From assembly GCF_004104415.1 (NCBI RefSeq), contig NZ_CP034669.1: DNA of 64,000 nucleotides. The stretch is one strand, 5' to 3'. Of this stretch, positions 13,306 through 53,304 are shown piece after piece (the first letter of the stretch is position 1; each line of letters opens with the position of its first letter). Source of the stretch: Corallococcus coralloides. GTDB lineage: Bacteria > Myxococcota > Myxococcia > Myxococcales > Myxococcaceae. A program made the translations under genes and the position numbers. The notes beneath the pieces are model-generated. The model did not search any database. It saw only the letters and a list, made by a program, of their open reading frames with translations, and was not told the DNA's origin.

Positions 13306-13404
13306 GGCAGCCGACCGAGCACCGCTCGGAAACTTCCCAAGCCTTGCGCCCGCCCGATAGGATGTGGCGGTTTTCACTGCACTTTTTGCTGGGTGAAGGG
13401 CTTC

Positions 13405-16400: not shown

Positions 16401-18000
16401 GCTGCGCGCGGACCTGTCGGAGACGCAGGGCCTCTACGACGCGGAGCGCACCGCCCACGCGGCGCTCGCGGAGGAGACCACCGCGCGCATCCACGCCCTC
16501 ACCGGCGAGCGCGACAACCTGACCGCGGAGCTGAACGCCACCTCGCAGCAGCTGGCCGACACGCAGGGCCAGCTCGCCAGCACCCAGGACGCGCTGGCCC
16601 GCGAGGAGCAGGCCCACGCGCAGTCCCGCCAGGCCGCCGCCAGCGCCCAGGCGGAGCTCACGCGCCAGCTCACCGAGGCCCAGGCCAACGGCGAGGACCT
16701 GGCCGAACAGCTCATCGTCACCAAGCACGAGCTGGGCACGCGCGTGTCGGAAGTCACGCAGCTGTCCTCCACGCTCGCGCAGACGGAGGACGCGCGGCAC
16801 CACCTGGAGGACCGCCTCCAGACGCTCACCCACGAGTCGCAGCGCCGTGAGGAGCTCCTCCAGAACGAGGTCGACACCAAGGGCAAGGAGCTGTCGGACA
16901 CGCTCCGCAAGCTCACGCACGTGACGCAGGAGAAGATGCGTCAGGCGGAGGTGCTCAACCGCGAGGTCTCCACCCGCACGGAGCAGGTGAAGCAGCTGGA
17001 AGGCCAGCTGGAGCACCAGGCCTCCGAGGCGAAGAAGCAGGCGGACGCGCTCCACCAGCAGCTCGCCAACGTCTCCGGCGAGCTGGACGGGGCGCGCAAG
17101 GCCATCGCGGACCGCGACGGACAGCTGCAGCAGGCCGCGAACCAGCAGAAGAAGCTCACCAGCGAGCGCGACGGACTGGCCGGGCAGCTCCAGCAGGCCC
17201 AGGCCCAGGCGCAACAGCAGGCCCAGCAGGCCCAGGCCGCCGCCGCCGAGGCGAAGAAGCAGGCGGACGACCTGGCCGCGAAGCTCGCGAAGGCGGACCA
17301 GCGCATCGCGCAGCTCTCCCAGGAGGCCCAGAAGTTCGCCGCCGACACGGAGGCGAAGCTCAAGGACGCCCAGGCCCAGCTGCAGACCCGCACCAAGAAG
17401 GCCCAGGACCTGGAGCTGGCGCTGGAGAACGCCCAGAGCACCCGCGCCCGCGCGGAGAAGGACCTCAACGCGCGCGTCGCCGCGGCGGAGACCAAGGCCA
17501 ACGAGGCGGCCTCGAAGCTCGCCACGGCGCAGAAGGACCGCAAGGACCTGGAGGCCCGTCAGGCCAAGGAGCTGGAGGACCTCAACGCCAAGCAGAAGGC
17601 GGAGCTCGAGCGCCGCGAAGCCATCAAGGCGCAGGAGGTCGCCCGCCTCCAGACGTCCGTCCAGGAGAAGAGCAAGGCGCTCAAGGTCGCCGAGCTGGAG
17701 CTGGCCCGCTACAAGTCCAAGGCCCCGGCCGCCGCCCCCGCCGCGAAGGCCAGCGCCAAGGCCACCGAGGACGAGCACCTGGCCGCCACCGTCCAGGCGA
17801 ACCCGGTCATCCCGGCCGCCGCCAAGCCCCCCGCCAAGGCCACCGCCAGGCCGGCCGCGAAGAAGGCCGCTGCCGCGCCCACCCCCGTCCCCGTGGACGA
17901 GGAGGCCCCGGAGCGCACCATGGTGATGCAGCTGCCCACCGCCCCCGAAGCCGGTGGTGAGGACGACTGGACGGCGCTCGTCGACGAGCTCGACAAGTAG
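13405..18000 (+). CDS. aglZ: AglZ/FrzS-family gliding-motility protein: N-terminal pseudo-receiver domain plus a coiled-coil of about 1350 aa
   Basis: The N-terminus aligns to the FrzS receiver (RRPDLVVVRAELPDQSGFALCGQIKKGKW against FrzS RDRPDLVVLAVDLSAGQNGYLICGKLKKD); an Arg sits where the phospho-acceptor Asp is expected. The rest is heptad-rich coiled-coil with 28-aa repeats. Start is ATG at 13405, with an alternative GTG at 13393. Confidence 0.7.
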   Translation: MERRVLIVESQNDFALSMASVLKSAGYNTAMATTASDAQRELEKRRPDLVVVRAELPDQSGFALCGQIKKGKWGQNLKVLLLSSDSGVEGLNKHRETPAAADGYLVIPFEMGELASMSTGIVPPGSDESDADLDAALSGAPREAPPPMPGVRTGAPPKLPKRERRSAMTDEDKSFMDRAFSSIADRKAELLAESRQLKRPPPRRELMGTPEGKIQILRDELKTREAQLARLSEIWSVRERELLSVEDRLHEKDVELQGLKMQVDDLLRRFNDAQQSIVQKEREHGATVDDLLLQKFSSEKDLIEVVASKEKDINVLRKEVNLRDEELARRGADLESWRNEFDKLEKHLGVVTLEFEVKEQKLQDTVRANEADILQLRERGDQFESELARTVSERDQRYAELDGELQALQERLTQTEQERDATVRGLEARATTAEEHASRSDAEIERLNAERAALEQRLTQQVADLESDIARVTGERDQLRLDKDALEADLTQRVEERDAKLSALDRELQEAIARNENSEAELNATIQQHRERIGELEGEVEAVKTHLEDRENELTAELQALQQAKDALEQDLTSQLEDLRAAKDALEADLNGQIQALTEQLDASQRQGEQLSARVASLEDTVAQRDGTIEGLQTDVSDRDARIAELTGNLEATSQQLSETQNTLSSTEATLAETRGELEATSQQLSETQGTLSNTEATLAETRGELEATSQQLSETQTRLAQTEETLSTTRGELEATSQTLATTEATLADTQGTLARTEGTLADTQATLSSTEGTLAETRGELEATSQTLADTQSRLARTEETLSTTRGELEATSQTLADTQATLSSTEGTLAETRGELEATSQTLTDTQAKLAQTEGTLASTQGELEATSQTLATTESTLAQTQDTLARTEGTLADTQATLSSTEGTLAETRGELEATSQTLTQTQETLESTRADLAKVTSHRDELDAELNETRDILQETNGLLARTTEERDARIADLAALNAAKDALEQDLTGQIGQLRADLSETQGLYDAERTAHAALAEETTARIHALTGERDNLTAELNATSQQLADTQGQLASTQDALAREEQAHAQSRQAAASAQAELTRQLTEAQANGEDLAEQLIVTKHELGTRVSEVTQLSSTLAQTEDARHHLEDRLQTLTHESQRREELLQNEVDTKGKELSDTLRKLTHVTQEKMRQAEVLNREVSTRTEQVKQLEGQLEHQASEAKKQADALHQQLANVSGELDGARKAIADRDGQLQQAANQQKKLTSERDGLAGQLQQAQAQAQQQAQQAQAAAAEAKKQADDLAAKLAKADQRIAQLSQEAQKFAADTEAKLKDAQAQLQTRTKKAQDLELALENAQSTRARAEKDLNARVAAAETKANEAASKLATAQKDRKDLEARQAKELEDLNAKQKAELERREAIKAQEVARLQTSVQEKSKALKVAELELARYKSKAPAAAPAAKASAKATEDEHLAATVQANPVIPAAAKPPAKATARPAAKKAAAAPTPVPVDEEAPERTMVMQLPTAPEAGGEDDWTALVDELDK
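15340..16215. repeat. In-frame tandem repeats of about 84 bp (28 aa) inside the aglZ-like coiled-coil
   Basis: Protein repeat ETRGELEATSQ(Q/T)L(S/A)(E/D)TQ.TL(S/A).TE(A/G)TLA iterated at least 10 times. These are coding repeats, not a CRISPR array. Confidence 0.6.
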
Positions 18001-32107: not shown

Positions 32108-35100
32108 CTACTGGGCCTTGTCCACGGTGAACATCGTGCCCGTGGAGTACGCGGTGAACTCCGGCGCGTACATGGACTGCACCGTCGCCGGGCCCACGCG
32201 GAAGGTGCCCGCCATGTTCGCGCGCAGCCGGTACTTGAAGTTGTACTCACCGGCCGGCAGCGACTCGAAGAAGAAGTTCGTCCCCGAGTCGCGCGTCTCC
32301 TCGTACCAGACGATGCCCAGGTCCCACTTGTGGCGGGACCGCGCGTTCTCCGGCTCCAGGCCCGCGGCGCGCGGGTCCCTCAGGTGCACGTACTCCGCCG
32401 CGTGCTTCGTGCGCAGCGACAGCTGCACCTCCACCTCGTCGCCGGGCCGCAGCCGCGCGCCGTCGGACAGCGGACGCAGCAGCGTCTGGTTGCCTTCGCG
32501 GATGCGCACGAAGTAGCGGCGCGACACCTGGAAGAAGTCACCGCGCTCCTCCCTGGGCAGCTGCTCCGTGGAGAAGTGCCACGTGGCGGACGCGATGGCG
32601 AAGCCCGGCGTCGTCTTCTCCACCACCGTGGTCGCCGTGGCGGCGTTCACCTCCGGACCGGGGACGACCACCTGGTTCTTCTTCCCCGTGTACACGTCCG
32701 GCGAGAAGCTCAGGGTCACCGCCCTGGAGCCCACCGTCACCTTCAGCTCCTCGCGCGCGGACAGCGAGCCCTCCGCCTCCATGTAGTTCACCAGCGCGTA
32801 GAGCGCCTCCGCCGTGGCGCGCGTGGACTTCCAGTGGTTCACCTTCTTGTCCAGGAGCAGCCACTGCACCAGGCCCGCGCGGCGGGGGTCCTTCGGGCGC
32901 AGCTCCGACAGCGTGCGCAGCGCGAAGGCGTGCGTCTCCGTGGAGTCGTTGTACCAGAGCCAGCTCCGGTCCTCGGGCGCCCAGTACGTGCCCAGGTCCT
33001 GCGTCGTCTTCGCGGAGTCCATCACGCTGTCCCAGACCTTCTGCGCGTCCTTCGCGCGCTTCGCCCGGTTCAGCGTGAGGGCCAGGTACCCCTTGAGGTA
33101 CGGCGAGTGCTGCTTCCAGTGCTTGAAGGAGAAGTCGAGCATGCGCTGCCGCTCGGCCGCCGTGAGCGCCTCGCCCGTGTAGCGCGCGTCCGGATACGCC
33201 GACGCCACGAAGTTGAGGAACGTGAGGAACTCCCAGCCCAGGTCCTTCTTCATCAGCCGGTTCGCGTAGTCGTCCCGGAAGTGCTTCGCCAGGTAGCCCC
33301 ACGCGGGCTCCGTCATGTTGGGCGACACCTCCACCCCGTGCTCCATGGCGCGCGACAGGCCGTGCAGGATGTAGAGCGTCATGTACGGCGACGACGGGCC
33401 GCCCGGCCACCAGGGGAAGCCCCCGTCCGCGTTCTGCGCCTTGCGCAGCTTCTGCTGGGATGAAATGCGCTGGGCCTGGGCCACCTTCGGATCCAGCACG
33501 CGCAGGAGCGCCGGGTCGGACTCCGCCCCGCCCTTCGCCTCGTTGAGCCAGGGCGTCTCCTCCAGCGTCATCTTCCGGTTCGGGTCCACGTCGTCGAAGG
33601 TCTCGAAGCGCGTGCTGCGCTCGCTCAGGTCCCTGGCCACCTTCGCCACCGCCGGATACTTGCTGAAGAGGCTGGAGACGATGCCCGTGGACACGAAGCG
33701 GTTGAGCGTCTGCTCCGTGCACTCATAGGGGTAGTCCACCAGGTACGGCAGCGCCTGGAGCACGGAGTAGAAGAGCTGCGCGTCCACCGTCACGACGAGC
33801 TGCTCGTTCACCCGCGTGGGGTCATCCGACTTCTTCAGGTCCTCGAACGTCAGCGTGCGGCGGTCCTGGTTGTTCAGCATGGCGAAGCGCGACTGCGACA
33901 GGTGCATGCGGCCGGGCAGCACCGGCAGGGGCCGCAGCTCGCCGTCGCTGAACGCGCCCGTCTTCGCGACCACGCGGAAGGCCACCGGCCCCACCCGCGC
34001 GGGCGTGGTGATGGGGAAGCGCAGGTTCGTCCCCTTCCCCGCCGCCACCGTGAAGGCCTGCGCGGCCGTCTTCACGCCGAACTCCGCGAGCAGGCTCTTC
34101 TGCGTGTCCGGGTCCACGATGTCCAACGTGAGCTGGCCCTGCTGCGGCTGGGTCCCCGCGTTGTTCACCACGACCTCCAGCTCCGCGCGGTCGCCCTCGC
34201 GCAGGAAGCGCGGCAGGTACGGGCGCACCATCAGCTCCTTCACGCTGCGGGCGGCGCGCTGCGTGGAGCCCCCGCGCAAGTCCCGCGTGAGCGCGTGCAC
34301 CCAGACGTCCCATGCCGTCACCGAGTCCGGCACCGTGAACTCCAGCACCGCCGCCCCGTCCGGCCCGGTGAGCAGCTGCGGAATCCAGAACGCCGTCTCC
34401 GCGAAGTTGGAGCGCAGCGGCTCCTCCGGCCCCTCCCCCGGTTCCGGGGCGCCGGGAGCGCCCTTGATGATCTGGATGATCTCCCGCCGCTTCTGCTCCA
34501 GCACCCGGCCGGTCTTCGGCGCGGACTCCGCGGTGGACGGCGCGGGCGACGGGGGCGGGGGCGGGGGCGGCGCACCGTCCGATTCCCGCTGGACGGCCCC
34601 GGGCTTCATGGCGCGCAGGCGGCGGCCGCCGTAGGAGTTGCGGTAGCCCGGACCGCCCAGCCCGTAGCCCTCGCCGAACCTCAGCGTGTCGTCGTGGAGC
34701 TCCGGCGCGGAGGGGCCCCCCCGGAGGAGCTCGTCGAAGAGCCAGTCCGCGCCGAAGACGCCACCAGAGGCCCGGAAGTCCACGTACACCGTCTGCTGCG
34801 GATACAGCTGCGCCACCCGCGGCGGCGTGTGCGGTCCGAAGACGTTGAGCGACTGATCGTACATGTACGCGAGCAGCTCCGCGGCCCCCGCCTCCAGCTT
34901 CGCGCCCTTCGGCCCCTTCACCGTCACGCGGAAGGTCTCCTTCGCGCCGGGCCGCAGCGTGTCGCGGAACGTGGCGAACTCCAGGCTCAGCTCCTTGTCA
35001 TCGAAGGGCACGGCCACCGTCTGCTGGAAGCTCAGCGTCTGCCAGTCGCGCACCATCGAGAGCACCACCGTGAAGCCGCCGCGCAGGGACTCCGTCACCG

Positions 35101-38100
35101 GAAGCTCCACCACCGCGCGCCCCTGCCCCGCCGTCAGCTGGCGGTGCTCCACGCGATTGCGTCCCTGGTACACGTCCATCACCAGCGGCTGGCCCTCGAA
35201 GCCGGAGGCCACCATCAGCCGAGCCACCTCGCCCACGCGCACGGAAGCGCGCTCCGCCGCCAGCACCGCGGGCAACCCCGCCGGGGCGCGCGCCCCCGCG
35301 ACCACGAAGTCCCGCTGCGCGGTGGCCTTCTGGCCAAACGCATCCGTCGTCTCGTAGCGCAGGCGGTACGTCCCCGCGCGCAGCGCCGGCAGCTTCACCG
35401 TGGCGACACCGTCCGCGCCATGCGTCACGGCCGCCTGCGCCAGCTCCGCGCCGTCGTCCCAGCGTCGCAGCGTCTGCTCCACGTCATAGGCCGTGTCCCA
35501 GCGCCCCTTCTGCGCGTCCCCCGGCGTGGGCGAAGCCTCCCGGGCCGGCTGCGCGCCCGCGTCCAGGGGCCTGGGCTGCTCCACCGGAACCTCCGACGGC
35601 ATCAGCGGACGCCCCGGCGCCTTCAAGGCGATGAGCCGCCAGCGGCCCGCGCCAGCCTGCGGCGCGCCATCCAGGTTCGAGCGCACGAGCCGCACCTCCG
35701 ACGGGAAGTCCTCGCGGACGAAGCCCACGTCGGAGTCCACGCGGCCCTCCACCGACACGAAGCCCAGGCGGAAGGCCCGGCTCGCGGAGCGGGTCTCACC
35801 GCCCTCGTCCGTCAGGTCCGCCTCCACGCGGTAGCGCCACGACATGCCCTGGGCCTTCGCGAGCCGCTCGTCCGCTTCCGGCGTGAAGGCCACCGTGAAG
35901 CCGCCGTCCTCGCCCACCGTGGCCGTCCCGGAGGCCACCAGCTCCGTGGTGGCCGGGATGCGCTCCCAGAACCACCAGCGCGGCAGCACCGGCTCGCGCG
36001 ACACGCGCCACTTCACCGCGCCGCGCGTCACCGGCAGGCCGAAGTAGTAGCGGGCCTCGCCCTTGAACGTCGCGCGGCGGTTGAGCCGCAGCGCTTCCGG
36101 CGCGTCCTTCAGCGTCACCTCGAAGGTGGGCCGCTTGTACTCCTCCACGCGCACGCCCGCGTAGCCGCTGGGGCTCGTGCGCACCGTCCAGTGCCCCAGG
36201 GCCCGCCCCCCGGGAAGGTCGAACTCGCCCGCCGCCGACCCGAACGTGTTGGTGCGCACCTCGCGCTTCGCCACCTCCTGGCCATTGGCGTCCACGAGCG
36301 ACACCGTCACCGCCGAATCCGGCAGGACGCGGTAGCGCTTCGACGCCTCCTCCGGACGGTAGGCGACCACCTTCCACAGCAGCTTCTGCTGGGGCCGGTA
36401 GACGGAGCGGTCCGTGTAGATGAGCGTCTGGTCCTGCGGGGCCCACTCGTGGAGGGGGGACAGGTAGAGCGAGCCCGGAAGCAACATCACGCCCCGGCCC
36501 CGGCCCAGCACCAGCTCCAGGTCCTCGTAGCGGTCGGCGTTCTTGCCCGTGAGCAGCAGGTCGCCGTTCGCGTCCGTGCGGCGGCTGACGGTGGTGAAGC
36601 GGCGGGTGCCGTAGTCCGACTTCACCAGCCGCACCTCCACGTTCGGAGCGGCCGCCCCCGTGGCCCCGTCCACCACGTGGATCTCCGCCTGGTTGGGGCT
36701 CGCCTTGCGCACCGTCACCGCCCAGGGCGACACGGACATCGGCAGGGAGAGGATGCGGCTGTTCTTCTTCGCGAAGTCCTGGCGCGTGGACAGGACGATG
36801 ATGTACGCGCCCGCCTTGAGCGCCGGTGGGGTCACGAACGTCTGGTGACGCTGGAAGTCCGGCGTGGGCGGCAGCGCCATGCTCCACGAGGCCTCCGGCT
36901 TGCGCGACGCCACGATGCGGAGCATCTCCGCGGAGGAGGGGTACAGCGACAGGTCCTCGCCGGGCTTCGCGAGCCGTGCCTCCACATCCAGCGCGTACGC
37001 CCGGAAGTACACCGTGCCCACGTTGCGGTGGCCCACCAGGATGGAGCGCTTGCCCGGCCCGTCCACCTGCATCCCGGTCGCGAACAGCTCCGGCGCCTCC
37101 AGCCTGCCCACCAGCGCCGCGCACTGCACGCCGCCCACCGACTTCGGCCACGCCTCCGCGCCCGCCTTCGCCAGGGCATGCGCGGTGATGGCGCGGCCCG
37201 CCTTCTCCTCCAGCTCCGCGAGCTGGTTCTGGCCCTTGGACCACCACGGCACGTCCCGGAAGCCCTTCAGGTGCGCGGCCAGGTGCTCCCGGATGCGCCG
37301 CTGATCCGCGGCGTCGGTGAACGACGTCGTCAGCACTTCGTAGCGCCGCAGCCGCGCCTCCAGCGCCGCCTCGCGCCGGCCCGCCGCCAGGTGCCACGCC
37401 TCCAGGTCCCCCAGCACCGCCGCCACCTTCATCAGCGGGTGCGCGGAGGGGTCCTTCAGCTCCACCTTCGGCGTGCCCTCCAGCAGCGCGCCCAGGTCCA
37501 GCCGGTACACGCCCTGCTCCTGCTCCGGGCGCCACAGGTCCGTGTCGTCCAGCGAGTCCACCCACAGGTACGTCACCGCGTCGCGCACCGTGGAGCGGAT
37601 GCCCTCCGGATACGTGTTGGGCTGGAGGTACTCGGACAGCCCCTTCACCGGCTCGGTGCCGAACTTCCGCCGCGACTCCCAGACGGCGGCGTACGTGCGC
37701 TGGATCTCCGCCGAAAGCTGATCCTTCGTCCACGCCTTCAGGTCCACCGGCCCGGAGGACACCACCTGCTCGCGCTGGCCAATCTCGTAGCTGTACGCCT
37801 GCTGGTATTTCGCGAGCACCGCCGCGTAGAACAGGTGGAGCGTGGCCTGCTGCCGCAGCCCCTCCGGCCAGGGCTGCTCGCGCAGGAAGCGCACCGCCGT
37901 CTCATAGCCGTGCAGCCGCGTGCGCAGCTGCACCGTGCGCACCAGCGCGCGCGTCCACTCGTCGGCGTCACCCTGGGCCTTCGCCGCGGCGAGCCGGGCC
38001 TCGGCCCCCTGCGCGGCGGACTCGACCTTGTCGTCCTCGACGAGCGCGTCGATGGCCTTCCACGCCGGGGGCGCCTTCGCCGCGGGGGCCGCCACGGACA

Positions 38101-38170
38101 CGGAGGACAGCGCGAGGGACAACAGGCACAGGACGACGGCGGCGGTACGCGGGCGCGGTGGAGAAGACAT
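32108..38170 (-). CDS. Bacterial alpha-2-macroglobulin (YfhM-type, thioester-containing), 2020 aa
   Basis: Signal peptide; MG/A2M domains; intact thioester motif CTEQ in PYECTEQTLNRF; C-terminal receptor-binding-like domain. Confidence 0.85.
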   Translation of the reverse strand: MSSPPRPRTAAVVLCLLSLALSSVSVAAPAAKAPPAWKAIDALVEDDKVESAAQGAEARLAAAKAQGDADEWTRALVRTVQLRTRLHGYETAVRFLREQPWPEGLRQQATLHLFYAAVLAKYQQAYSYEIGQREQVVSSGPVDLKAWTKDQLSAEIQRTYAAVWESRRKFGTEPVKGLSEYLQPNTYPEGIRSTVRDAVTYLWVDSLDDTDLWRPEQEQGVYRLDLGALLEGTPKVELKDPSAHPLMKVAAVLGDLEAWHLAAGRREAALEARLRRYEVLTTSFTDAADQRRIREHLAAHLKGFRDVPWWSKGQNQLAELEEKAGRAITAHALAKAGAEAWPKSVGGVQCAALVGRLEAPELFATGMQVDGPGKRSILVGHRNVGTVYFRAYALDVEARLAKPGEDLSLYPSSAEMLRIVASRKPEASWSMALPPTPDFQRHQTFVTPPALKAGAYIIVLSTRQDFAKKNSRILSLPMSVSPWAVTVRKASPNQAEIHVVDGATGAAAPNVEVRLVKSDYGTRRFTTVSRRTDANGDLLLTGKNADRYEDLELVLGRGRGVMLLPGSLYLSPLHEWAPQDQTLIYTDRSVYRPQQKLLWKVVAYRPEEASKRYRVLPDSAVTVSLVDANGQEVAKREVRTNTFGSAAGEFDLPGGRALGHWTVRTSPSGYAGVRVEEYKRPTFEVTLKDAPEALRLNRRATFKGEARYYFGLPVTRGAVKWRVSREPVLPRWWFWERIPATTELVASGTATVGEDGGFTVAFTPEADERLAKAQGMSWRYRVEADLTDEGGETRSASRAFRLGFVSVEGRVDSDVGFVREDFPSEVRLVRSNLDGAPQAGAGRWRLIALKAPGRPLMPSEVPVEQPRPLDAGAQPAREASPTPGDAQKGRWDTAYDVEQTLRRWDDGAELAQAAVTHGADGVATVKLPALRAGTYRLRYETTDAFGQKATAQRDFVVAGARAPAGLPAVLAAERASVRVGEVARLMVASGFEGQPLVMDVYQGRNRVEHRQLTAGQGRAVVELPVTESLRGGFTVVLSMVRDWQTLSFQQTVAVPFDDKELSLEFATFRDTLRPGAKETFRVTVKGPKGAKLEAGAAELLAYMYDQSLNVFGPHTPPRVAQLYPQQTVYVDFRASGGVFGADWLFDELLRGGPSAPELHDDTLRFGEGYGLGGPGYRNSYGGRRLRAMKPGAVQRESDGAPPPPPPPSPAPSTAESAPKTGRVLEQKRREIIQIIKGAPGAPEPGEGPEEPLRSNFAETAFWIPQLLTGPDGAAVLEFTVPDSVTAWDVWVHALTRDLRGGSTQRAARSVKELMVRPYLPRFLREGDRAELEVVVNNAGTQPQQGQLTLDIVDPDTQKSLLAEFGVKTAAQAFTVAAGKGTNLRFPITTPARVGPVAFRVVAKTGAFSDGELRPLPVLPGRMHLSQSRFAMLNNQDRRTLTFEDLKKSDDPTRVNEQLVVTVDAQLFYSVLQALPYLVDYPYECTEQTLNRFVSTGIVSSLFSKYPAVAKVARDLSERSTRFETFDDVDPNRKMTLEETPWLNEAKGGAESDPALLRVLDPKVAQAQRISSQQKLRKAQNADGGFPWWPGGPSSPYMTLYILHGLSRAMEHGVEVSPNMTEPAWGYLAKHFRDDYANRLMKKDLGWEFLTFLNFVASAYPDARYTGEALTAAERQRMLDFSFKHWKQHSPYLKGYLALTLNRAKRAKDAQKVWDSVMDSAKTTQDLGTYWAPEDRSWLWYNDSTETHAFALRTLSELRPKDPRRAGLVQWLLLDKKVNHWKSTRATAEALYALVNYMEAEGSLSAREELKVTVGSRAVTLSFSPDVYTGKKNQVVVPGPEVNAATATTVVEKTTPGFAIASATWHFSTEQLPREERGDFFQVSRRYFVRIREGNQTLLRPLSDGARLRPGDEVEVQLSLRTKHAAEYVHLRDPRAAGLEPENARSRHKWDLGIVWYEETRDSGTNFFFESLPAGEYNFKYRLRANMAGTFRVGPATVQSMYAPEFTAYSTGTMFTVDKAQ

Positions 38171-38221
38171 AGGGGCGGCACTCTAGACGCCGCCCGCGCC
38201 CGTGGCGTTCCCTTCGCTGTT

Positions 38222-46014: not shown

Positions 46015-46067
46015 AAAGGGCGCCACAGGTGCGTGGACGGGCGCGGGCTGCGACACTGCCCGCGCCC

Positions 46068-47171
46068 ATGCTCCCCTCCTTCGTGGCCCTGCTCGGGCTT
46101 GGCCTGAGCGCCGCTCCCCCGCCCTCCCCCGCTTCCGCGTCCGCGGTGCTCCACGCGCAGTGCCGCGCGCACGCGGCGGATGCCTCCCGCCCCTGGGCGC
46201 TCGCGCACGGCATGGACCTGGACGGGAAGGCCTTCCGCGCGCGGGATGGCCGCGCGGCCTCGGACGCCATCGTCGCGGGGTTCCTGCGCCGCGACGCGCC
46301 CGACGCGGGAGGCACGGCCCGCTACTTCTTCGACGCCTTCACCCCGGACGGCACGCCCGTGGAGCCCCACCCGGCGCTCCAGGTGAAGACCCTCCTGCTC
46401 GCGGGCTACCCGCGCGCGCATGCGTTCCCCACGGCGTGGGGCAAGGTGACGCTGCGGGAGCTGGTGGGCTCGCTCCAGCACGGCTTCCGCCCCGCGCTCG
46501 CCGCGTCGCCGGACGGGGCCTGGGCGCTGGACGCGCTGTCCCACGTGCTGGAGCCCGGGGGCGCGTTCGTCAACGGCGCGGGGGAGACGGTGCGCATGGA
46601 CGCGGTGATGGACACCGCGCTCGCCACCCTGGAGTCCGCGAACGCGGAGCTGCTCCGGGGCATGAAGGCGGGCCTCCCCCAGGTGCCCAAGAACAAGCAG
46701 GGCATCTACGCGCACCCGTGTGGCGGGCTCCACTTCTTCCAGGCCGTCGCGGGGTGGGCGCGCTTCCCCGCCGTGCGCAAGGCGTGGGGCCCGCGGCTGG
46801 ACGCGCAGGTGGACGTGCTGGTGTACCGGCTGGGCTCGGAGGCGAAGCAGTACGAGGCCGCGCTCACCGCCGCGCCCGCGTACCGCGTCCCGGTGCTGGT
46901 GCAGATGGTGAAGTTCTACGGCCACTTCCTGGAGGCCCTGGGGCGCTACCGGGACGAGACGGGCTGGAAGCCCACGCCCGCGCAGGCCCGGGCGGTGGCG
47001 GAGGCGAAGGCCGCGCTGGAGCACGCCACGCAAAGGCTGGAGGCCACGGGCGCCTTCCGCGACACGGAGGCGCTGGCCAGGACGCAGCCCCAGCTCGCCC
47101 TGGACCTGGTGGGTGACGCGTGCCACGCGGCGCGCGGCTGGGACCTGTGGGCCTCCGCGAAGGCCCGTTGA
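46068..47171 (+). CDS. Hypothetical secreted protein
   Basis: Signal peptide MLPSFVALLGLGLSAAPPP; no recognizable domain from sequence alone. Confidence 0.5.
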   Translation: MLPSFVALLGLGLSAAPPPSPASASAVLHAQCRAHAADASRPWALAHGMDLDGKAFRARDGRAASDAIVAGFLRRDAPDAGGTARYFFDAFTPDGTPVEPHPALQVKTLLLAGYPRAHAFPTAWGKVTLRELVGSLQHGFRPALAASPDGAWALDALSHVLEPGGAFVNGAGETVRMDAVMDTALATLESANAELLRGMKAGLPQVPKNKQGIYAHPCGGLHFFQAVAGWARFPAVRKAWGPRLDAQVDVLVYRLGSEAKQYEAALTAAPAYRVPVLVQMVKFYGHFLEALGRYRDETGWKPTPAQARAVAEAKAALEHATQRLEATGAFRDTEALARTQPQLALDLVGDACHAARGWDLWASAKAR

Positions 47172-47180
47172 GACACCCGC

Positions 47181-48932
47181 TCAGGGCCCGTCCTGACGCT
47201 GGCCCCCCGGCTTGAGCCGCAGCAGGCCCGCGGAGAGCGCCGCCTTCCCGGAGGCCATCCACCGGCGGCCCCGCTGCCGCGCGACCATCACCGAGCCCAG
47301 CACGAGCCGCTGGGCGCGCATCTGGAGCAGGTCCGCGCGCAGCTCCATGGGCGTCACGGTGCGGATGCGGCCCTGCTCGTAGGCCTCGGTGATGGCGCGG
47401 CGCTGGAGCTTGCCGCTGCTCGTCTTCTGGAGCTGGCCGTAGCGGATGAAGAGGACGTCTTCTTTCGCGAGCGTCACGCCCACCGTCTCCAGCACCGACT
47501 GGCAGACCTGCTTGCGGCTGTCCTCCAGGCGCTCCAGCGCGGACGGGTGGTTCACCTCCGCCAGCACCACGAGGCGGCCCTTCACCTGGATGACGGCGGT
47601 GCGGCCCGGGCGGATGAAGCCCAGCCGCTCCACGGCCTGCTCGAAATCCCCGGAGAAGAAGCTCTGGCCGTTCACCTTGATGCGGTCGTTGATCCTCCCG
47701 GTGATGAAGAGCTCGCCCTCCTTCTGGAAGCCCAGGTCGCCCGTGGCGTAGAAGCCGTCCTCGCCGCGCAGGGGCCGGTCGTCCAGGAAGTACGACGGCG
47801 CCAGGCTGCCGCCGCGCAGCTCGATTTCGCCCAGCTCGCCCTCGCCGCACAGCTGGCCGTCCTCCGCGCGCAGCCGCACCTCGAACTCCGTCAGCGGGCG
47901 GCCCACGGAGATGGCCGGCTGGCCGTTGGGCGCGGTGATGACGCGCACCGTCTGGCGCGGCGGAACGCTCGCGACCATCAGCACCGTCTCCGCCATGCCG
48001 TAGCAGGGCATGAACACGTCGCGCCGCAGGCCGCACGGGGCGAGGATGTCCAGGAACTGCTCCAGGTTGGGGATGTTGATGGGCTCGCTGCCCAGGTAGA
48101 TGCTCCGCACACGCGACAGGTCCAGCCGCTTCAGGTCGTCCGCGTCCGCCGACTTGAGCGACTTCAGCGCGTAGTCGATGGCGAAGTTGGGGATGACGGA
48201 GCCCATCACCTTCTCGGAGGAGATGAGCTCCAGCCAGCCCAGGGGGTCCATCAGGAACGACGCGGGCTGGGACAACAGCAGATCATTGCCCACCGTGATG
48301 CAGGTGAGCAGCCCGCCGATGAGTCCCATGTCGTGGTAGAGCGGCAGCCAGCTCGTCACCCGGTCCTCGGACGTGCGGCCGTCGTGCCGGATGATCATCC
48401 GCAGGTTCGCGGCCAGGTTCTCGTGGGTGATGGGCACGCCCTTGGGGAACGACGTGGACCCCGACGAGAACTGCACGAACGCGAGTTCTTCGGGCGCCAC
48501 CTCGCGCAGCTTCACGCCGGCACGCTTCGCGCCCGAGGGCGGCAAGGGCAACCGCTCCAGCGGCAGCTCCAGGCCGGACAGGCCAGGCGCGTCCAGGATG
48601 AGTGAGGCGCCGTAGCGCTCGCGGATGCGCGCGAGGAAGTCCCGGTAGGGCCCCTTCGGCGTGCTCAGGATGTACGGCTTCACGGACAGGGGCACCGCGC
48701 CCAGCTCCATCAGTCCCAGGAAGGCGAAGATGACGGACGAGGAGGTTTCGAAGGGCAGCACCACGCACGTGCCCGGCGCCACGCCGCGCGCGCGGAAGTG
48801 CTCCGCCGCCCCGGCCACCCGGGAGGCGAACTCCCGGTAGGGCACGAACTCGGGCGGCCCGACGAAGTCGTCGTAGAGAAACAGGCCGCGCCGCGGATCC
48901 ACCGCCTCCAACCGCTGGATGATGTCGAGCAT
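47181..48932 (-). CDS. Fatty acyl-AMP ligase (FAAL-type adenylate-forming enzyme)
   Basis: Start at MLDIIQRLE (48932), preceded by GGAGGAGGGGAGG. Adenylation motifs FSSGSTSFPKGV and WLPLYHDMGLIGG (the FAAL-typical PxYHDMGL) are present. Confidence 0.8.
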   Translation of the reverse strand: MLDIIQRLEAVDPRRGLFLYDDFVGPPEFVPYREFASRVAGAAEHFRARGVAPGTCVVLPFETSSSVIFAFLGLMELGAVPLSVKPYILSTPKGPYRDFLARIRERYGASLILDAPGLSGLELPLERLPLPPSGAKRAGVKLREVAPEELAFVQFSSGSTSFPKGVPITHENLAANLRMIIRHDGRTSEDRVTSWLPLYHDMGLIGGLLTCITVGNDLLLSQPASFLMDPLGWLELISSEKVMGSVIPNFAIDYALKSLKSADADDLKRLDLSRVRSIYLGSEPINIPNLEQFLDILAPCGLRRDVFMPCYGMAETVLMVASVPPRQTVRVITAPNGQPAISVGRPLTEFEVRLRAEDGQLCGEGELGEIELRGGSLAPSYFLDDRPLRGEDGFYATGDLGFQKEGELFITGRINDRIKVNGQSFFSGDFEQAVERLGFIRPGRTAVIQVKGRLVVLAEVNHPSALERLEDSRKQVCQSVLETVGVTLAKEDVLFIRYGQLQKTSSGKLQRRAITEAYEQGRIRTVTPMELRADLLQMRAQRLVLGSVMVARQRGRRWMASGKAALSAGLLRLKPGGQRQDGP

Positions 48933-48961
48933 GCGAAAAGACCTCCCCTCCTCCGGGTTCT

Positions 48962-49879
48962 TCAGTGCGCGGGCGCCACCTGACGCATCCACGCGAGCAC
49001 GCGGGGCAGCACCTCCGCGCGGGCGCGCTCTCCGCGCACCACGTCGAAGTGGCCCGCGTCCCAGCTCAGCCCCTGCGCGCGCCCCAGGACGAACAGGTCC
49101 TTGCGGGCACTGCCCAGGTGGGCCACCAGCTTCTCCACGCGCTGCGGTGACGCATGGAACGCGTCCGCCGCGCCCACGCCCGCGAACACCGGAAGCGTCA
49201 CGTTGCCCAGCGCGCGCCAGTAGTCCGTCGCCCCATCCGCGCTGCGGAACGCGCCCGTGGGCGCCCAGTCCGTGAACTGCCGCATCACGCCCGCCGGTTC
49301 GTCCCAGGGCCCCTGCTTCAGCGCCTTCGCCGGGAAGCGTCCCAACACCCCCGCCACCGCGGCCGAGAAGCCCAGCTGGAAGCGCTTCTTGAACCCACCG
49401 TCGCTGTAGTCGTTCACCGCCGAGGACAGCGTGCACACGCCGGACAGCGACGCCTGGAGCGAGGGGTCCACCCCCAGGGCCGCCAGCGCCGCGTAGCCCG
49501 CCATGCTGTGGGCCAGGAGGAACAGCGGCCCGGTGTGGCGCGCGCGCACGGCCCGCACCAGGTCCGGGAGGTCGTGGCGCACGTAGGTGTCGAAGCTCCA
49601 GTCGTACGCGCGCTTCGCGGGCCAGCGGCTCCTGCCATGTCCGCGCAAGGAAGCGACATACGCCACGCAGCCCGCGTCCACGAAGGTGCGCGCGGCCCCG
49701 TCGCCCTGCCCGCCCAGGAAGAAGCGGCCGTCGGAGAACAGCCCCGGCACGAAGAGGACGCCGGGCGCGGCGTCCGGCGTCCCGGACAGGCGCGCCTCCA
49801 CGACGTGCAGCGCGTGCTCCTGGGACGTGGGCACCCAGAACTCGCGCGACGCGAGCTCCGGCTTCGCGTTCGTGCTCAT
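48962..49879 (-). CDS. Alpha/beta-fold hydrolase
   Basis: Start at MSTNAKPE (49879). Nucleophile elbow LLAHSMAGYAA (GxSxG). It overlaps the upstream thioesterase stop (ATGA). Confidence 0.7.
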   Translation of the reverse strand: MSTNAKPELASREFWVPTSQEHALHVVEARLSGTPDAAPGVLFVPGLFSDGRFFLGGQGDGAARTFVDAGCVAYVASLRGHGRSRWPAKRAYDWSFDTYVRHDLPDLVRAVRARHTGPLFLLAHSMAGYAALAALGVDPSLQASLSGVCTLSSAVNDYSDGGFKKRFQLGFSAAVAGVLGRFPAKALKQGPWDEPAGVMRQFTDWAPTGAFRSADGATDYWRALGNVTLPVFAGVGAADAFHASPQRVEKLVAHLGSARKDLFVLGRAQGLSWDAGHFDVVRGERARAEVLPRVLAWMRQVAPAH

Positions 49880-50322
49880 GGAAGCGGCTCCTCCACGGGG
49901 GCCACCGGCGCGCGCGCGCCGTCCAGGAACTGCTGCAGCGACGCGAGCGACCGGGCCCGCGCGTCCAGGAAGGCCACGCTCACCAGCGCCTCCACCGCCA
50001 CCGGCCCGTCCGCCGCCAGGAACACGCGCTGACGGAACCGCGCCCGGTAGTTGAGGCCGTCCGGCTCCAGCTCGTCCGCCGCGGGGGACTCCAGCTCCGT
50101 GTGCACCACCACCTCGCCCGGGGGAATCTCCCGGCGGTAGTCCACCTCCACGCGCGACACCACGGCCACCACCGCCCCCCCGCGCGTCAGCCCCTGCCGC
50201 TCCAGCCAGGCCCAACGGCCGGCCTCCAGGTACTCCAGCGTGGTGGCGTTGTTCACGTGCCCCAGGATGTCCAGGTCATTGGGACGCACGCGCAGCGTGA
50301 GCGACGACTCTTCGAAGTGCAC
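49876..50322 (-). CDS. Hotdog-fold (4HBT/YbgC-like) acyl-CoA/ACP thioesterase
   Basis: RVRPNDLDILGHVNNATTLEYLEAGRWAW signature of 4HBT thioesterases. Confidence 0.7.
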   Translation of the reverse strand: MHFEESSLTLRVRPNDLDILGHVNNATTLEYLEAGRWAWLERQGLTRGGAVVAVVSRVEVDYRREIPPGEVVVHTELESPAADELEPDGLNYRARFRQRVFLAADGPVAVEALVSVAFLDARARSLASLQQFLDGARAPVAPVEEPLP

Positions 50323-50361
50323 GGAGGATGTCCTTCGGCTGCCGGGGGGTGACAGCGATTT

Positions 50362-50727
50362 TCAGGGGGACGGAGCGCGCGTCACGATGACCACCGTCGA
50401 GACGAACCCTCCGCTATGCGACAGCGAGACAGCGACCTGCAGGCCCTCGCGCGCCAGGTGCGCCGCGAGCGTGCCGTGAAACCGGAAGCGTGGAGCGTGC
50501 CGGGCGTCGTGGACGAGCTCCGCGTCCGTCCAGAACCACCCGGCGACCGCGGGCAGCGCCTTGAAGAGGGCCTCCTTCGCGCTGAAGCCCGCCGCCAGGC
50601 TCTGCACCGGCTCCGCCGCGCGCTCGAAGTGGGCGAGCTCCGCGGCGGTGAAGAAGACGTCCGGCTCCCGCAGGGCCCGTGCGGCCTCCAGCTCCGAGAT
50701 GGCCTGGAGGTCGTGGCCCAGGCCCAT
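50362..50727 (-). CDS. acpS: Holo-ACP synthase (AcpS-type 4'-phosphopantetheinyl transferase)
   Basis: The 121-aa C-terminal part of track ORF 50362..51441, beginning MGLGHDLQAISELE... AcpS blocks FSAKEALFKAL and VSLSHSGGFVSTVVI are present. Start overlaps the upstream stop (TGATG). Confidence 0.7.
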   Translation of the reverse strand: MGLGHDLQAISELEAARALREPDVFFTAAELAHFERAAEPVQSLAAGFSAKEALFKALPAVAGWFWTDAELVHDARHAPRFRFHGTLAAHLAREGLQVAVSLSHSGGFVSTVVIVTRAPSP

Positions 50728-51686
50728 CAGCACCCGACGAGGTCCATCCAGGTGTCCTCCAGCTCCTCGCGCGAGTTCACCGCGATGCCGGTGATGCGCT
50801 TGAGGGCGTGGAAGATGAGCTGCTCCTTCTTGCGCAGCGCGTCCGGGGAGTAGAAGCCCTCGCGGTGCTCCAGCCGATCCCACCAGTTGACGTGGGTGTC
50901 GCGGCTCTCCACGCGCTCGCGCTTGCTGCCGTGCACCTCGCCGCCGTCGCGCAGGAACAGGTGCGCCACCGCGAACGCCTCCTTCGCCTTGTACGCGCCG
51001 CTGTCCACCAGCGCCTTGGCGAAGGCGATGAAGTAGTTCATGTGCTGCACTTCGTCCGCCGCCACCTGCTTGAACAGCGCGCGCAGGCCCGGGTCCTGGA
51101 CCATCTGCGAGCACTGGCCGTAGTCCACCGCCGCCACCACCTCGGAGATGGACAGGAGCGTGAGCGTGCGCAGCATGTCGTCGTCGGGGAAGACCTTGCG
51201 GAACTCGATGAAGGTGGCGTCGGTGATGGGCTCCATCCCCAGCACCGAGGACAGGCGGTTGAACGCCGTCTCGTGGTGCGCCTCCTCCTCGTTCCAGTAG
51301 CGGCTCCACGTGCCGCACGCCTGCATGATGGCGGCGACGGTGGCGTCCTTCTCCTGCCACCGGCGGCACTCCAAATCCGCCAGCCGCTCCAGCCGGTCCG
51401 CGCCCGGCTTCGTCGTCAGCTCCGCCCGCCCGGCGTTCCACACCAGGTGCCGGTCGGCTTCACGCACGTGCGTGAAGTCCACCTGGGCGAGCATCTCCAC
51501 CACGCTCCAGCGCCGCGACTCGTGCAGGCGCTGCTGCTCCCAGGTGAGGTCCACCAACGACTGGCCCCGCTGGGTGAGGGCTTCGTACAGCTCCCCCTGG
51601 ATGGCCGGGCGGCCTTCGCGCGGGAGGACCTTGGGGGGAGTGACGGTCACTTCTTCGTGCTCGTGGCTGCGCGCCGGGACACTCAT
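50727..51686 (-). CDS. Ferritin-like di-iron carboxylate protein (acyl-ACP desaturase/oxygenase-like)
   Basis: Two ExxH motifs in helices (NEEEAHHETAF and ADEVQHMNYF) plus additional Glu ligands (ISEVVAAVDYGQ). Family assignment is made by motif only. Confidence 0.65.
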   Translation of the reverse strand: MSVPARSHEHEEVTVTPPKVLPREGRPAIQGELYEALTQRGQSLVDLTWEQQRLHESRRWSVVEMLAQVDFTHVREADRHLVWNAGRAELTTKPGADRLERLADLECRRWQEKDATVAAIMQACGTWSRYWNEEEAHHETAFNRLSSVLGMEPITDATFIEFRKVFPDDDMLRTLTLLSISEVVAAVDYGQCSQMVQDPGLRALFKQVAADEVQHMNYFIAFAKALVDSGAYKAKEAFAVAHLFLRDGGEVHGSKRERVESRDTHVNWWDRLEHREGFYSPDALRKKEQLIFHALKRITGIAVNSREELEDTWMDLVGC

Positions 51687-51979
51687 GCCGACTTCCGCTC
51701 CGGGTTCGAGACTTCACCCATGAACACCGCCAGGACCGTGGACACCGGTGTATCCAGGGACAGCGCTGGCAGGCGCACCCTGAGTCCAAAATCCTTGCGC
51801 AACCCGTTGGACGTACGGGCAAAGGCTTCCATCAAGTCCACGCTGTTGGTCATGCGCTCTGAGCGTGTAATCAGCGCCGCGAGTGTGAGGTCCTCGGAGA
51901 ACAACTCCTCCTGCGTGAGACCCACGTTTTCCGCGAATTTCCGTCGGATATATGACTCGAGCTCCTGCGCGTCGGGCAC
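51683..51979 (-). CDS. Acyl carrier protein (stand-alone)
   Basis: 98 aa with the phosphopantetheine-attachment motif TNSVDLMEAF. Its stop overlaps the desaturase-like start (ATGA). Confidence 0.7.
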   Translation of the reverse strand: MPDAQELESYIRRKFAENVGLTQEELFSEDLTLAALITRSERMTNSVDLMEAFARTSNGLRKDFGLRVRLPALSLDTPVSTVLAVFMGEVSNPERKSA

Positions 51980-52125
51980 GGGGGACCTTCCTTCCCAGGG
52001 CTTGAAAGTCGATTTCCCAGTCTAAAACAGGAAAGACTAACTGTGACTCCAGACCTGTCAATCATCAACGGGTCACTTTGGATCCGCGCACGAACCCACC
52101 CTCATGGGTTCGTTTCACGCGTCAT

Positions 52126-53304
52126 TCATGCACTCAGGCGCGAGATTTCCTCAGCCGTGAAACCCGCGTCTTCCAGGATGACGCGCGAGTGCTGTCCGAG
52201 CGTGGGCGGTGGACGCAGTGCGACGTCGCCCATGCGCAGCGGCGTGAGCAGGTGCGTAACGCGGATGCCGCGCTGCGCATCATCCGTCTCCACGAAGAGG
52301 CCGCGCGCGCGCAGCTGCGGATCCGCGAGCACCTCGTCGCCTTCCGCCACCGGCTCCACGCAGAACTCCGCGCCGGAGAGCTGCTCACGCCAGTGCGCCA
52401 GGGGCTGGCTCGCGAAGATGCGGGTGAGCTCCGCCTTCACGCGCGCGCCGTCTTCACCGCCCGAGTACGCGTCCTCCAGCAGCTCCGGCCGTCCCAGCTT
52501 CGCGCAGAGCGCGCCGAAGAACCTGGGCTCCAGCGCGCCCACCGCGAGCCAGCGGTCGTCCGCAGTGCGGTACAGGCCATAGCTGGGATAGCCGCCGTTG
52601 AGCGGCTCGCTTCCGCGCTGGAGCGGCGCGCCCTCCTTCCCCATGAACAGGCGCGAGGCCAGGTGCAGGTGGAGGAACGCCAGCGCGCCGTCCGTCATGG
52701 ACACGTCCACGAAGCGGCCCACGCCGGTGCGCTCGCGCTCGTGCAGCGCGGCCAGGATGCCCACCAGCGCGAAGAGGCTGCCTCCGCCGATGTCCGCCAT
52801 CTGCACGCCCGGGAACGCGGGCGCGCCCCCGGCCTCGCCGCCGTAGCCCAGCAGGCCCGCGCGGGCCACGTAGTTGAGGTCGTGCCCCGCCTTGAGCCGG
52901 TCCGGCCCCGTCTGGCCGTAGCCGGAGATGGCGCAGTAGATGAGCCGCGGGTTCTTCTGGCGCAGCACCGCTTCGCCCACGCCCAGCTTGTCCATGACGC
53001 CGGGGCGGAAGCTCTCCACCAGCACGTCGTAGTGGGACACGAGGCGCAGGAGCGCGTCACGGCCTTCGGGCGTCTTGAGGTTCAGCGTGAGCGAGCGCTT
53101 GTTGCGGTGCAGCCCGTAGTAGAGCGCGCCCTCCCCGTCGCGGTGCGGCGGCATGTGGCGGGTGGCGTCCCCCACGTCCGGCTCCTCCACGGTGTCCACC
53201 GTGGCGCCCAGGTCCGCGAGCACCAGCGTCGCGTACGGGCCGGGCAGCAGGCGCGACAGGTCCAACACCCGCAGGCCTGCGAGGGGGGAAGACGGCTCGG
53301 ACAT
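52126..53304 (-). CDS. Family III CoA-transferase (CaiB/BaiF/alpha-methylacyl-CoA racemase family)
   Basis: LAGLRVLDLSRLLPGPYATLVLADLGA N-terminus and full-length family III architecture. Confidence 0.85.
   Translation of the reverse strand: MSEPSSPLAGLRVLDLSRLLPGPYATLVLADLGATVDTVEEPDVGDATRHMPPHRDGEGALYYGLHRNKRSLTLNLKTPEGRDALLRLVSHYDVLVESFRPGVMDKLGVGEAVLRQKNPRLIYCAISGYGQTGPDRLKAGHDLNYVARAGLLGYGGEAGGAPAFPGVQMADIGGGSLFALVGILAALHERERTGVGRFVDVSMTDGALAFLHLHLASRLFMGKEGAPLQRGSEPLNGGYPSYGLYRTADDRWLAVGALEPRFFGALCAKLGRPELLEDAYSGGEDGARVKAELTRIFASQPLAHWREQLSGAEFCVEPVAEGDEVLADPQLRARGLFVETDDAQRGIRVTHLLTPLRMGDVALRPPPTLGQHSRVILEDAGFTAEEISRLSA

Follow-up and report, generated by a model that had tools for sequence, protein, structure and literature searches.

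The closest precedents for a pathway that joins fatty acyl-AMP ligase (FAAL) and acyl carrier protein (ACP) to an ACP-dependent di-iron enzyme are CylA/CylB/CylC and NocL/NocM/NocO (PMC12101540, PMC8406957). In these cyanobacterial systems, a fatty acid is placed on a dedicated ACP by a stand-alone FAAL, and a ferritin-like di-iron enzyme acts on the tethered chain, the enzyme being a halogenase that uses ferredoxin, a reductase and O2 and depends on its cognate ACP (PMC12101540). The CylC halogenase carries the signature QExxH plus HxxDExxH, with three His and three Glu ligands and an open halide site (PMC12101540). In the JamA/JamB/JamC alkyne cassette and the bacterial polyyne clusters, a private ACP is loaded with a fatty acid, the chain is desaturated while tethered and a dedicated thioesterase releases it (PMC8406139, PMC11837247). 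In the mycobactin mbt-2 locus (FadD33/MbtM, the ACP MbtL, MbtN and MbtK), a FAAL likewise charges a dedicated ACP, and the tethered chain undergoes desaturation ahead of its use. Desaturation in mbt-2 is carried out by a flavin acyl-ACP dehydrogenase (MbtN), and an acyltransferase passes the chain on. A cassette of six genes that resembles each of these systems in part is described here from Corallococcus coralloides, where it occupies positions 47181-51979 of the minus strand of a 64,000-nucleotide stretch of contig NZ_CP034669.1 (the window). It encodes an ACP-like carrier, a di-iron protein, an AcpS-type phosphopantetheinyl transferase (PPTase), a hotdog thioesterase, an alpha/beta hydrolase and a ligase placed by sequence in the FAAL clade. 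On balance, it is probably a horizontally mobile cassette that tailors a fatty acid tethered to its dedicated carrier and then releases the product.

All six minus-strand open reading frames (ORFs) reported in a preliminary description of the window are present. The ACP-like carrier gene (51683-51979, 98 aa) has a GTG start with the ribosome-binding site GGAAGGAAGG upstream, and is followed by the genes for the di-iron protein (50727-51686, 319 aa), the AcpS-type PPTase (50362-50727, 121 aa), the hotdog thioesterase (49876-50322, 148 aa, GTG start), the alpha/beta hydrolase (48962-49879, 305 aa) and the FAAL-clade ligase (47181-48932, 583 aa). The junctions described earlier were also seen, namely ATGA between the ACP and di-iron genes, TGATG between the di-iron and PPTase genes and ATGA between the hotdog and hydrolase genes. 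The spacing between hydrolase and ligase, previously given as 30 nt, measures 29 nt and carries GGAGGAGGGGAGG, and a gap of 39 nt between the PPTase and hotdog genes had gone unmentioned. The GC content of the window is ~70%. Codon-position GC, scored for the open frames that contain the di-iron, hotdog and ligase genes, supports these frames; GC3 is 0.95 for the di-iron frame, 0.93 for the hotdog frame and 0.82 for the long frame containing the ligase gene. The PLYHDMGL and NSVDLME motifs and the two ExxH motifs were all found in the translations. The six genes are co-directional and translationally coupled, and the cassette is real and self-contained. The ATGA overlap of the ACP and di-iron genes is kept in Kitasatospora and Streptomyces.

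To place the cassette among other genomes, loci were searched for with the di-iron protein as query, in one genome per species, followed by tblastn with all six window proteins. The gene order ACP-diiron-(PPTase)-hotdog-(hydrolase)-ligase is found almost everywhere among the resulting 64 loci, which belong to Myxococcota, Actinomycetota, Acidobacteriota (a metagenome-assembled genome (MAG) of Pyrinomonadaceae) and Gammaproteobacteria (Thiohalocapsa). Since the same order recurs in 64 independent loci across phyla, the cassette is far beyond chance. Conservation of the gene neighbourhood, which the preliminary description had suggested looking for across Myxococcales, extends well beyond that order. 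The hosts in Myxococcota include Corallococcus (~90% identity), Citreicoccus, Hyalangium and Nannocystaceae, and those in actinobacteria include Streptomyces, Kitasatospora, Frankia, Catellatospora, Saccharothrix, Solwaraspora and Actinocrinis. Protein identity ranges from 45 to 75% over the 64 loci, and every cassette protein is 60-75% identical between Corallococcus and Streptomyces. The most conserved component throughout is the di-iron protein, with 58-75% identity where the ligase has 45-60%.

The core genes are those of the ACP, the di-iron protein, the hotdog protein and the ligase. The PPTase gene is present at its position in most loci and is missing from several Kitasatospora and Frankia loci. 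The hydrolase gene and a crotonase-family gene are mutually exclusive (35 loci with hydrolase, 14 with crotonase, none with both). PPTase and alpha/beta hydrolase are therefore optional parts of the cassette. Thus, of the self-contained module proposed earlier, the ligase, the carrier, the di-iron enzyme and the hotdog protein hold as constant parts, but the PPTase and hydrolase do not. The core of that proposal, a dedicated and non-housekeeping module with ligase, carrier, PPTase, di-iron tailoring enzyme and hydrolases, is supported by the family assignments and by synteny.

More divergent versions of the cassette were also found. Nostoc sp. WHI has a copy with 27-37% identity and the same order; here ACP-diiron-PPTase-hotdog-ligase lie directly after a phage-type integrase gene, and behind them come an unannotated ORF of 289 aa and a gene for a membrane fatty-acid desaturase (PF00487) (L069:3978-11106). 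In a clade of Pseudomonas, a 23%-identical di-iron protein is linked with a hotdog protein, a PF00550 PP-binding ACP, a FAAL and a second hotdog protein, and the locus looks like a sister cassette type. In the example at L070:6001-10245, the ferritin-like protein has 393 aa, the two hotdog proteins are of 4HBT and 4HBT_2 type and an ABC exporter adjoins. In Hyalangium, the ACP and di-iron genes are tandemly duplicated as one pair, with paralogues ~59% identical, which argues for a specific partnership of the two proteins. Both paralogues retain the WNEEE-x-HH motif (L017:5069-7888, L019, L020). Given the same order in distant phyla, the divergent versions in Nostoc and Pseudomonas and the paired duplication in Hyalangium, the cassette is a functional unit of long standing that spreads by horizontal transfer.

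The di-iron protein scores 21.7 bits with PF03405, compared to a gathering cut-off of 22.7 bits, and the match covers HMM positions 95-221 only. An hhalign comparison with 11 PF03405-positive proteins, however, gives a probability of 99.2% (E 8.4e-20, 238 aligned columns). Thus, of the acyl-ACP desaturase assignment that the preliminary description had weighed against other ferritin-like families, homology to PF03405 is upheld, but a score above the cut-off is not found. A rubrerythrin or Dps protein had been named there as the alternative that would overturn the pathway; the protein is instead a remote relative of acyl-ACP desaturases. Identity as a Dps, rubrerythrin or bacterioferritin was ruled out, as the protein has 319 aa compared to ~140-190 aa and no Pfam match to those families. 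The predicted ligands E89, E135, H138, E182, E212 and H215 (2-His/4-carboxylate) are invariant in an alignment of 30 homologues, and in PF03405-positive proteins the six positions correspond to the columns E, EE..H, E and DE..H, which are invariant there. This predicted ligand set is typical of C-H oxidising desaturases and hydroxylases. An exhaustive profile search of 1.84 billion representative proteins returned only 44 matches and ~four full-length 50%-identity clusters. The next relatives outside this clade appear at E ~1e-9 and all match PF03405; the mycobacterial DesA2 (1za0) is the only weak sequence relative among oxygenases in the PDB. Judged from these profile comparisons, the di-iron protein is a distinct, very tight and unnamed clade of the soluble acyl-ACP desaturase superfamily. 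Some of the remote relatives bear N-terminal ferredoxin domains, consistent with ferredoxin-driven turnover.

With the stearoyl-ACP delta-9 desaturase and DesA1/DesA2 (PF03405), the cassette enzyme thus shares a superfamily and the same six ligands, and an ACP-tethered substrate would be expected. It is, however, only 11-19% identical to these soluble desaturases and lies below the Pfam gathering score, its partner is a private and divergent ACP rather than the housekeeping AcpP or AcpM, and it is encoded in a mobile cassette that brings along enzymes for loading and release. The comparison with CylC was made by published motif: the cassette enzyme has a predicted 2-His/4-carboxylate set in EExxH/AADExxH, in contrast to QExxH plus HxxDExxH with 3 His/3 Glu and an open halide position, and Pfam and PDB searches do not place it with the AurF-type oxygenases, to which CylC is similar. 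A CylC-type halogenase was rejected as a candidate, since N-E-E-E-A-H-H and V-A-A-D-E-V-Q-H are found in place of the signature, and the Gln and extra His are missing. R2lox is 14% identical; it has no ACP, ligase or thioesterase context and gives no mechanism.

The same architecture might serve another di-iron chemistry, such as oxidative C-C cleavage (similar to BioE or aldehyde-deformylating oxygenase), epoxidation, acetylenation or halogenation; the cassette would then yield a dicarboxylate, an acid or aldehyde of reduced length, an alkyne or a halo-acid. The isolation of the clade, with its ~four clusters among 1.84 billion proteins, is in keeping with this, as tight small clades often mark a specialised reaction, and BioE is a ferritin-like di-iron enzyme able to cleave acyl-ACP (PMC12704756). 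However, every one of the closest relatives by sequence matches the acyl-ACP desaturase family, the ligands are of the type used by C-H oxidising desaturases and hydroxylases, and EEEAHH and VAADEVQH stand where the CylC halogenase signature would be. We therefore regard such a chemistry as unlikely, although deserving of serious consideration.

The carrier has no match to any Pfam or NCBIfam family, including PF00550, and searches of the PDB by sequence found no carrier protein, even with a profile of 23 homologues. Ser46, in N-S-[VIL]-D-L-M-E, is nevertheless invariant across all 67 homologues taken from the loci. In the AlphaFold model (pLDDT 86), the protein adopts a helical-bundle ACP fold, and the long second helix (46-64) carries Ser46 at its N-terminus, a DSL-like position. 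The carrier thus models as a stand-alone, highly divergent ACP. The earlier claim of a dedicated ACP with an attachment serine agrees with the invariant Ser46 and the modelled fold, but PF00550 does not detect the protein. The PPTase, encoded two genes downstream of the ACP, is a single-domain protein that matches PF01648 ACPS with 41.6 bits (cut-off 25), as anticipated in the preliminary description, and TIGR00556 with 46.8 bits (cut-off 45.35). Its presence in the cassette is circumstantial evidence that the carrier may be phosphopantetheinylated, and an AcpS-type PPTase of its own would fit a carrier that housekeeping enzymes may not recognise.

The ligase matches PF00501 with 165.4 bits and PF23024, the DIP2/FAAL-type C-terminal domain, with 41.8 bits. 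Its top NCBIfam match is PRK07768 (long-chain-fatty-acid--CoA ligase, 271 bits, below the cut-off), followed by PRK09192 (fatty acyl-AMP ligase, 258 bits) and MbtM (199 bits), both below their curated cut-offs. The best PDB matches are mostly FAALs (7r7e, 3pbk, 3kxw, FadD23, FadD32 and FadD28). The spacing from A5 to A7 is 86 aa in all cassette ligases, compared to 69 aa in the neighbouring long-chain acyl-CoA ligase (FACL) and 113 aa in canonical actinobacterial FAALs, and this region is ~20-30 residues shorter in the cassette ligase than in 7r7e. The previous assignment as a FAAL is therefore supported by the two Pfam domains and the mostly FAAL structural relatives, but not by a full FAAL insertion. 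The ligase is best predicted to be a member of the FAAL clade that loads the carrier, the loading being suggested by genomic context. A basic C-terminal tail of ~50 aa (window 47181-47340, minus) is specific to Corallococcus, and the actinobacterial orthologues (~533 aa) are without it.

The hotdog protein matches PF13279 (4HBT_2, 56.7 bits) and belongs to the 4HBT/YbgC/FadM class. In the PDB it comes closest to 2fuj and to E. coli YbaW/FadM (1njk), with whose Asp residue D18 aligns. This residue lies in VRPxDLDxLGHVN and is at least 95% conserved among 45 homologues, so that by sequence the protein appears to be a FadM/YbaW-type thioesterase that keeps the catalytic Asp. The alpha/beta hydrolase matches PF12146 (46.4 bits) and also PF00561, and the alignment columns of its triad, Ser125, Asp239 and His277, are conserved in 30 homologues; a sequence search of the PDB found no relative. 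Its nucleophile elbow reads AHSMAG and not the strict GxSxG that had been reported.

From the gene structure, the family and fold assignments, the conservation of catalytic residues and the co-inheritance of the genes, we infer a series of biochemical steps with their substrate and product. The AcpS-type PPTase would turn the cassette's own divergent carrier to the holo form at Ser46. The FAAL-clade ligase would then adenylate a free carboxylic acid (a fatty acid being the most likely) and pass the acyl group to the phosphopantetheine thiol of the carrier. The di-iron enzyme may dock on the acyl-carrier and oxidise the tethered chain with O2, with desaturation the most likely outcome and hydroxylation the next; the electrons would come from a host ferredoxin, as none is encoded in the cassette. 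The YbgC/FadM-type hotdog thioesterase would cleave the thioester, releasing the modified free acid and recycling the carrier. The alpha/beta hydrolase would be a replaceable accessory, as would the crotonase that other lineages have in its stead; the hydrolase may edit the carrier, serve as an additional means of release or liberate the substrate acid from an ester lipid. As no polyketide synthase (PKS), nonribosomal peptide synthetase (NRPS) or acyltransferase gene is consistently adjacent, hydrolytic release is the simplest ending.

Several points weigh against this scheme. The FAAL-specific insertion is only partial in the ligase, which may therefore use CoA, and a fatty acid is assumed as substrate from family resemblance only. 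The score of the di-iron protein falls just below the PF03405 threshold, and in structural terms R2lox and the R2 subunit of ribonucleotide reductase are as close to it as the desaturase is. Ferritin-like di-iron enzymes are known to desaturate, hydroxylate, epoxidise, halogenate, N-oxygenate and cleave C-C bonds (PMC12101540, PMC12704756), and the type of reaction cannot be read from the sequence. The cassette contains no reductase or ferredoxin gene. With two or three hydrolase-type genes present, more than one enzyme could release the product. Finally, no published description of the cassette was found in a literature that lay mostly outside subscription journals and included a 2025 review of FAALs (PMC11837247).

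A different ending would follow if no free acid were released and the modified acyl-carrier were handed as a starter or donor to an enzyme encoded elsewhere, for instance a lipid acyltransferase, a PKS or the condensation domain of an NRPS, much as in the mbt-2 locus or in lipopeptide initiation, with the hotdog protein serving as an editing thioesterase or a dehydratase. A FAAL with a stand-alone ACP is the classic pair for lipoinitiation (PMC9113097, PMC11837247), and a membrane acyltransferase (PF01757) adjoins the cassette in one MAG. A larger pathway is also hinted at in ~15 actinobacterial loci, where a second gene set lies divergent from the cassette (L003:1-4462, with equivalents in L028, L029, L032, L035, L037, L039, L042, L043, L045, L048, L049, L053 and L057). 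This set encodes a canonical FAAL (~600 aa), an 88-aa MoaD/ThiS/SAMP-like protein, a 276-aa weakly YbgC-like (double-hotdog-like) protein and an acyl-CoA-dehydrogenase-like protein. The pairing of a FAAL with a ubiquitin-like sulfur carrier is unusual and may belong to a larger pathway. In loci with this set, a P450 gene is sometimes found between an MFS pump gene and the ACP gene. However, no condensing or transferase gene is consistently linked in the 64 loci, the flanks varying by lineage, and the hotdog protein, with its catalytic Asp, is a core component that is universally retained. Large ORFs flanking the divergent loci were considered as a possible PKS, NRPS or condensing partner and rejected, as they encode kinases, PEP carboxylase, radical-SAM methyltransferase and the like and are not conserved. 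A hand-over of the acyl-carrier therefore seems distinctly improbable, and hydrolytic release of the tailored acid is preferred.

With tailoring on the carrier followed by release, the cassette differs from the other described systems in several ways. Unlike Cyl and Noc, it encodes a PPTase and a thioesterase of its own and does not supply a PKS. The desaturases of JamA/JamB/JamC and the polyyne clusters are integral-membrane fatty acid desaturases (PF00487) with rubredoxin partners, while the cassette oxidase is predicted to be a soluble four-helix bundle and release would be by a hotdog protein. In contrast to mbt-2, the oxidase would be a di-iron enzyme and the ending hydrolytic. The cassette is thus set apart from known systems by its oxidase clade, its highly divergent carrier and its full self-containment.

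In the window, the cassette lies between genes that belong to a conserved chromosomal backbone. Upstream are genes for a CoA-transferase, SCP2, a response regulator, a histidine kinase and an acyl-CoA ligase, and downstream are those for a 380-aa protein, MarR, an RND pump and a membrane fusion protein (MFP). The gene for the 380-aa protein (46029-47171, plus) is conserved and without a Pfam match; it is convergent with the ligase gene, and the two stop codons are only 9 nt apart. The CoA-transferase gene is vertically inherited in Myxococcaceae and Archangiaceae. Myxococcus xanthus has the backbone TPR-FACL-TatA-histidine kinase-response regulator-SCP2-CoA-transferase, followed by the homologue of the 380-aa protein, MarR and the RND pump, and no cassette; the homologue (60% identity) lies between CoA-transferase and MarR, with nothing before it. 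At the same position in Archangium violaceum, just downstream of the CoA-transferase gene, are large modular PKS genes (L072:10502-19173). The spot downstream of the CoA-transferase gene may therefore be one where biosynthetic genes integrate repeatedly. Either the cassette was inserted into the conserved backbone, or it is a block that the cassette-free genera have lost.

The preliminary description had read the CoA-transferase, SCP2 and long-chain acyl-CoA ligase genes as part of a lipid-remodelling neighbourhood, and they could in principle form one such locus with the cassette. They lie within 6 kb on the same strand and stay beside the cassette in Corallococcus, Citreicoccus and Hyalangium. 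However, the cassette is not co-inherited with them: the backbone of M. xanthus is identical and has nothing between CoA-transferase and the 380-aa homologue, A. violaceum has a PKS at the same spot, and these neighbours are lacking at the cassettes of other Myxococcota, actinobacteria, Nostoc and Thiohalocapsa. As the neighbours are a conserved backbone present in the cassette-free M. xanthus, a joint lipid-remodelling locus is very improbable, and a functional link to the CoA-transferase, SCP2 and FACL was rejected on the same grounds. A hairpin and a promoter-like site between the CoA-transferase and ACP genes also argue against a joint locus. The hairpin, a perfect 8-bp stem with a 5-nt loop read by eye (CGAACCCA-TGAGG-TGGGTTCG, 52091..52112, minus), lies 14 nt past the CoA-transferase stop codon; it has no T-run after it and was unreported by a terminator scan. 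It is a possible boundary between the CoA-transferase gene and the cassette, and is offered as a lead only. The second element, TTGACA-N16-TAGTCT (52034..52061, minus), was also read by eye, in the relatively AT-rich 146-nt spacer upstream of the ACP gene. Its -35 hexamer is perfect and its -10 matches at 3/6 positions, which is below the scan threshold; this putative promoter is likewise a lead only.

Automated scans of the region gave little further indication of boundaries. A consensus promoter scan gave no promoter-like site, and the terminator scan gave one terminator-like site, inside the hydrolase gene, compared to 2.2 expected from shuffles. An Rfam scan of 46900-52300 with E up to 1 gave no match, and when the borders of the cassette were searched for repeats that might be scars of insertion, only chance-level GC-rich matches came up.

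Efflux pumps are recurrent neighbours of the cassette. In 22 actinobacterial loci, the gene directly upstream codes for a DHA2-family MFS pump, as would suit a secreted product, and a MarR-regulated RND pump is encoded nearby in Myxococcaceae. These pumps would also fit a role in detoxification, in which exogenous antimicrobial fatty acids are captured, oxidised on the carrier and released as a harmless derivative for efflux. However, the RND/MarR block is part of the cassette-free backbone, export pumps are equally expected with a secreted product, and we know of no precedent for ACP-dependent detoxification of fatty acids. Detoxification is thus hardly to be expected.

Two features elsewhere in the window were also noted. 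At 13306-18000 (plus), a strong positive AT skew of 0.38-0.48 coincides with an ORF of 1564 aa, whose product has a response-regulator receiver domain at the N-terminus and then a very long coiled coil. A 2024-aa homologue of bacterial alpha-2-macroglobulin, with MG2, A2M, bait-region, TED and bMG10 domains, is encoded at 32108-38182 (minus).

As a compact and portable unit of four to six genes, the cassette would probably be overlooked by genome-mining tools keyed to PKS and NRPS genes. Its two central proteins, the di-iron oxidase clade and the carrier undetected by PF00550, are without a family model at threshold. Because the cassette has its own loading, priming and release enzymes, heterologous expression should be directly feasible as a test, and M. 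xanthus, naturally without the cassette at this chromosomal site, offers an isogenic context. The cassette is a solid and directly testable lead from genome mining, not a conceptual surprise, and could be a source of a new soluble, ACP-dependent biocatalyst for C-H functionalisation. More speculatively, and as a minority view that we would still not dismiss, the di-iron protein and its private carrier may be a new ACP-dependent ferritin-like oxidase system with a chemistry other than simple delta-9-type desaturation (producing, for instance, chain cleavage, an alkyne, an epoxide or a diol). The product would then be a small diffusible lipid, formed through the same exchanged cassette in soil bacteria as distantly related as myxobacteria, streptomycetes, Frankia and acidobacteria, and acting as their shared signal or allelochemical. 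Exchange of the cassette among at least five phyla at 60-75% identity implies a small-molecule product that is strongly selected.

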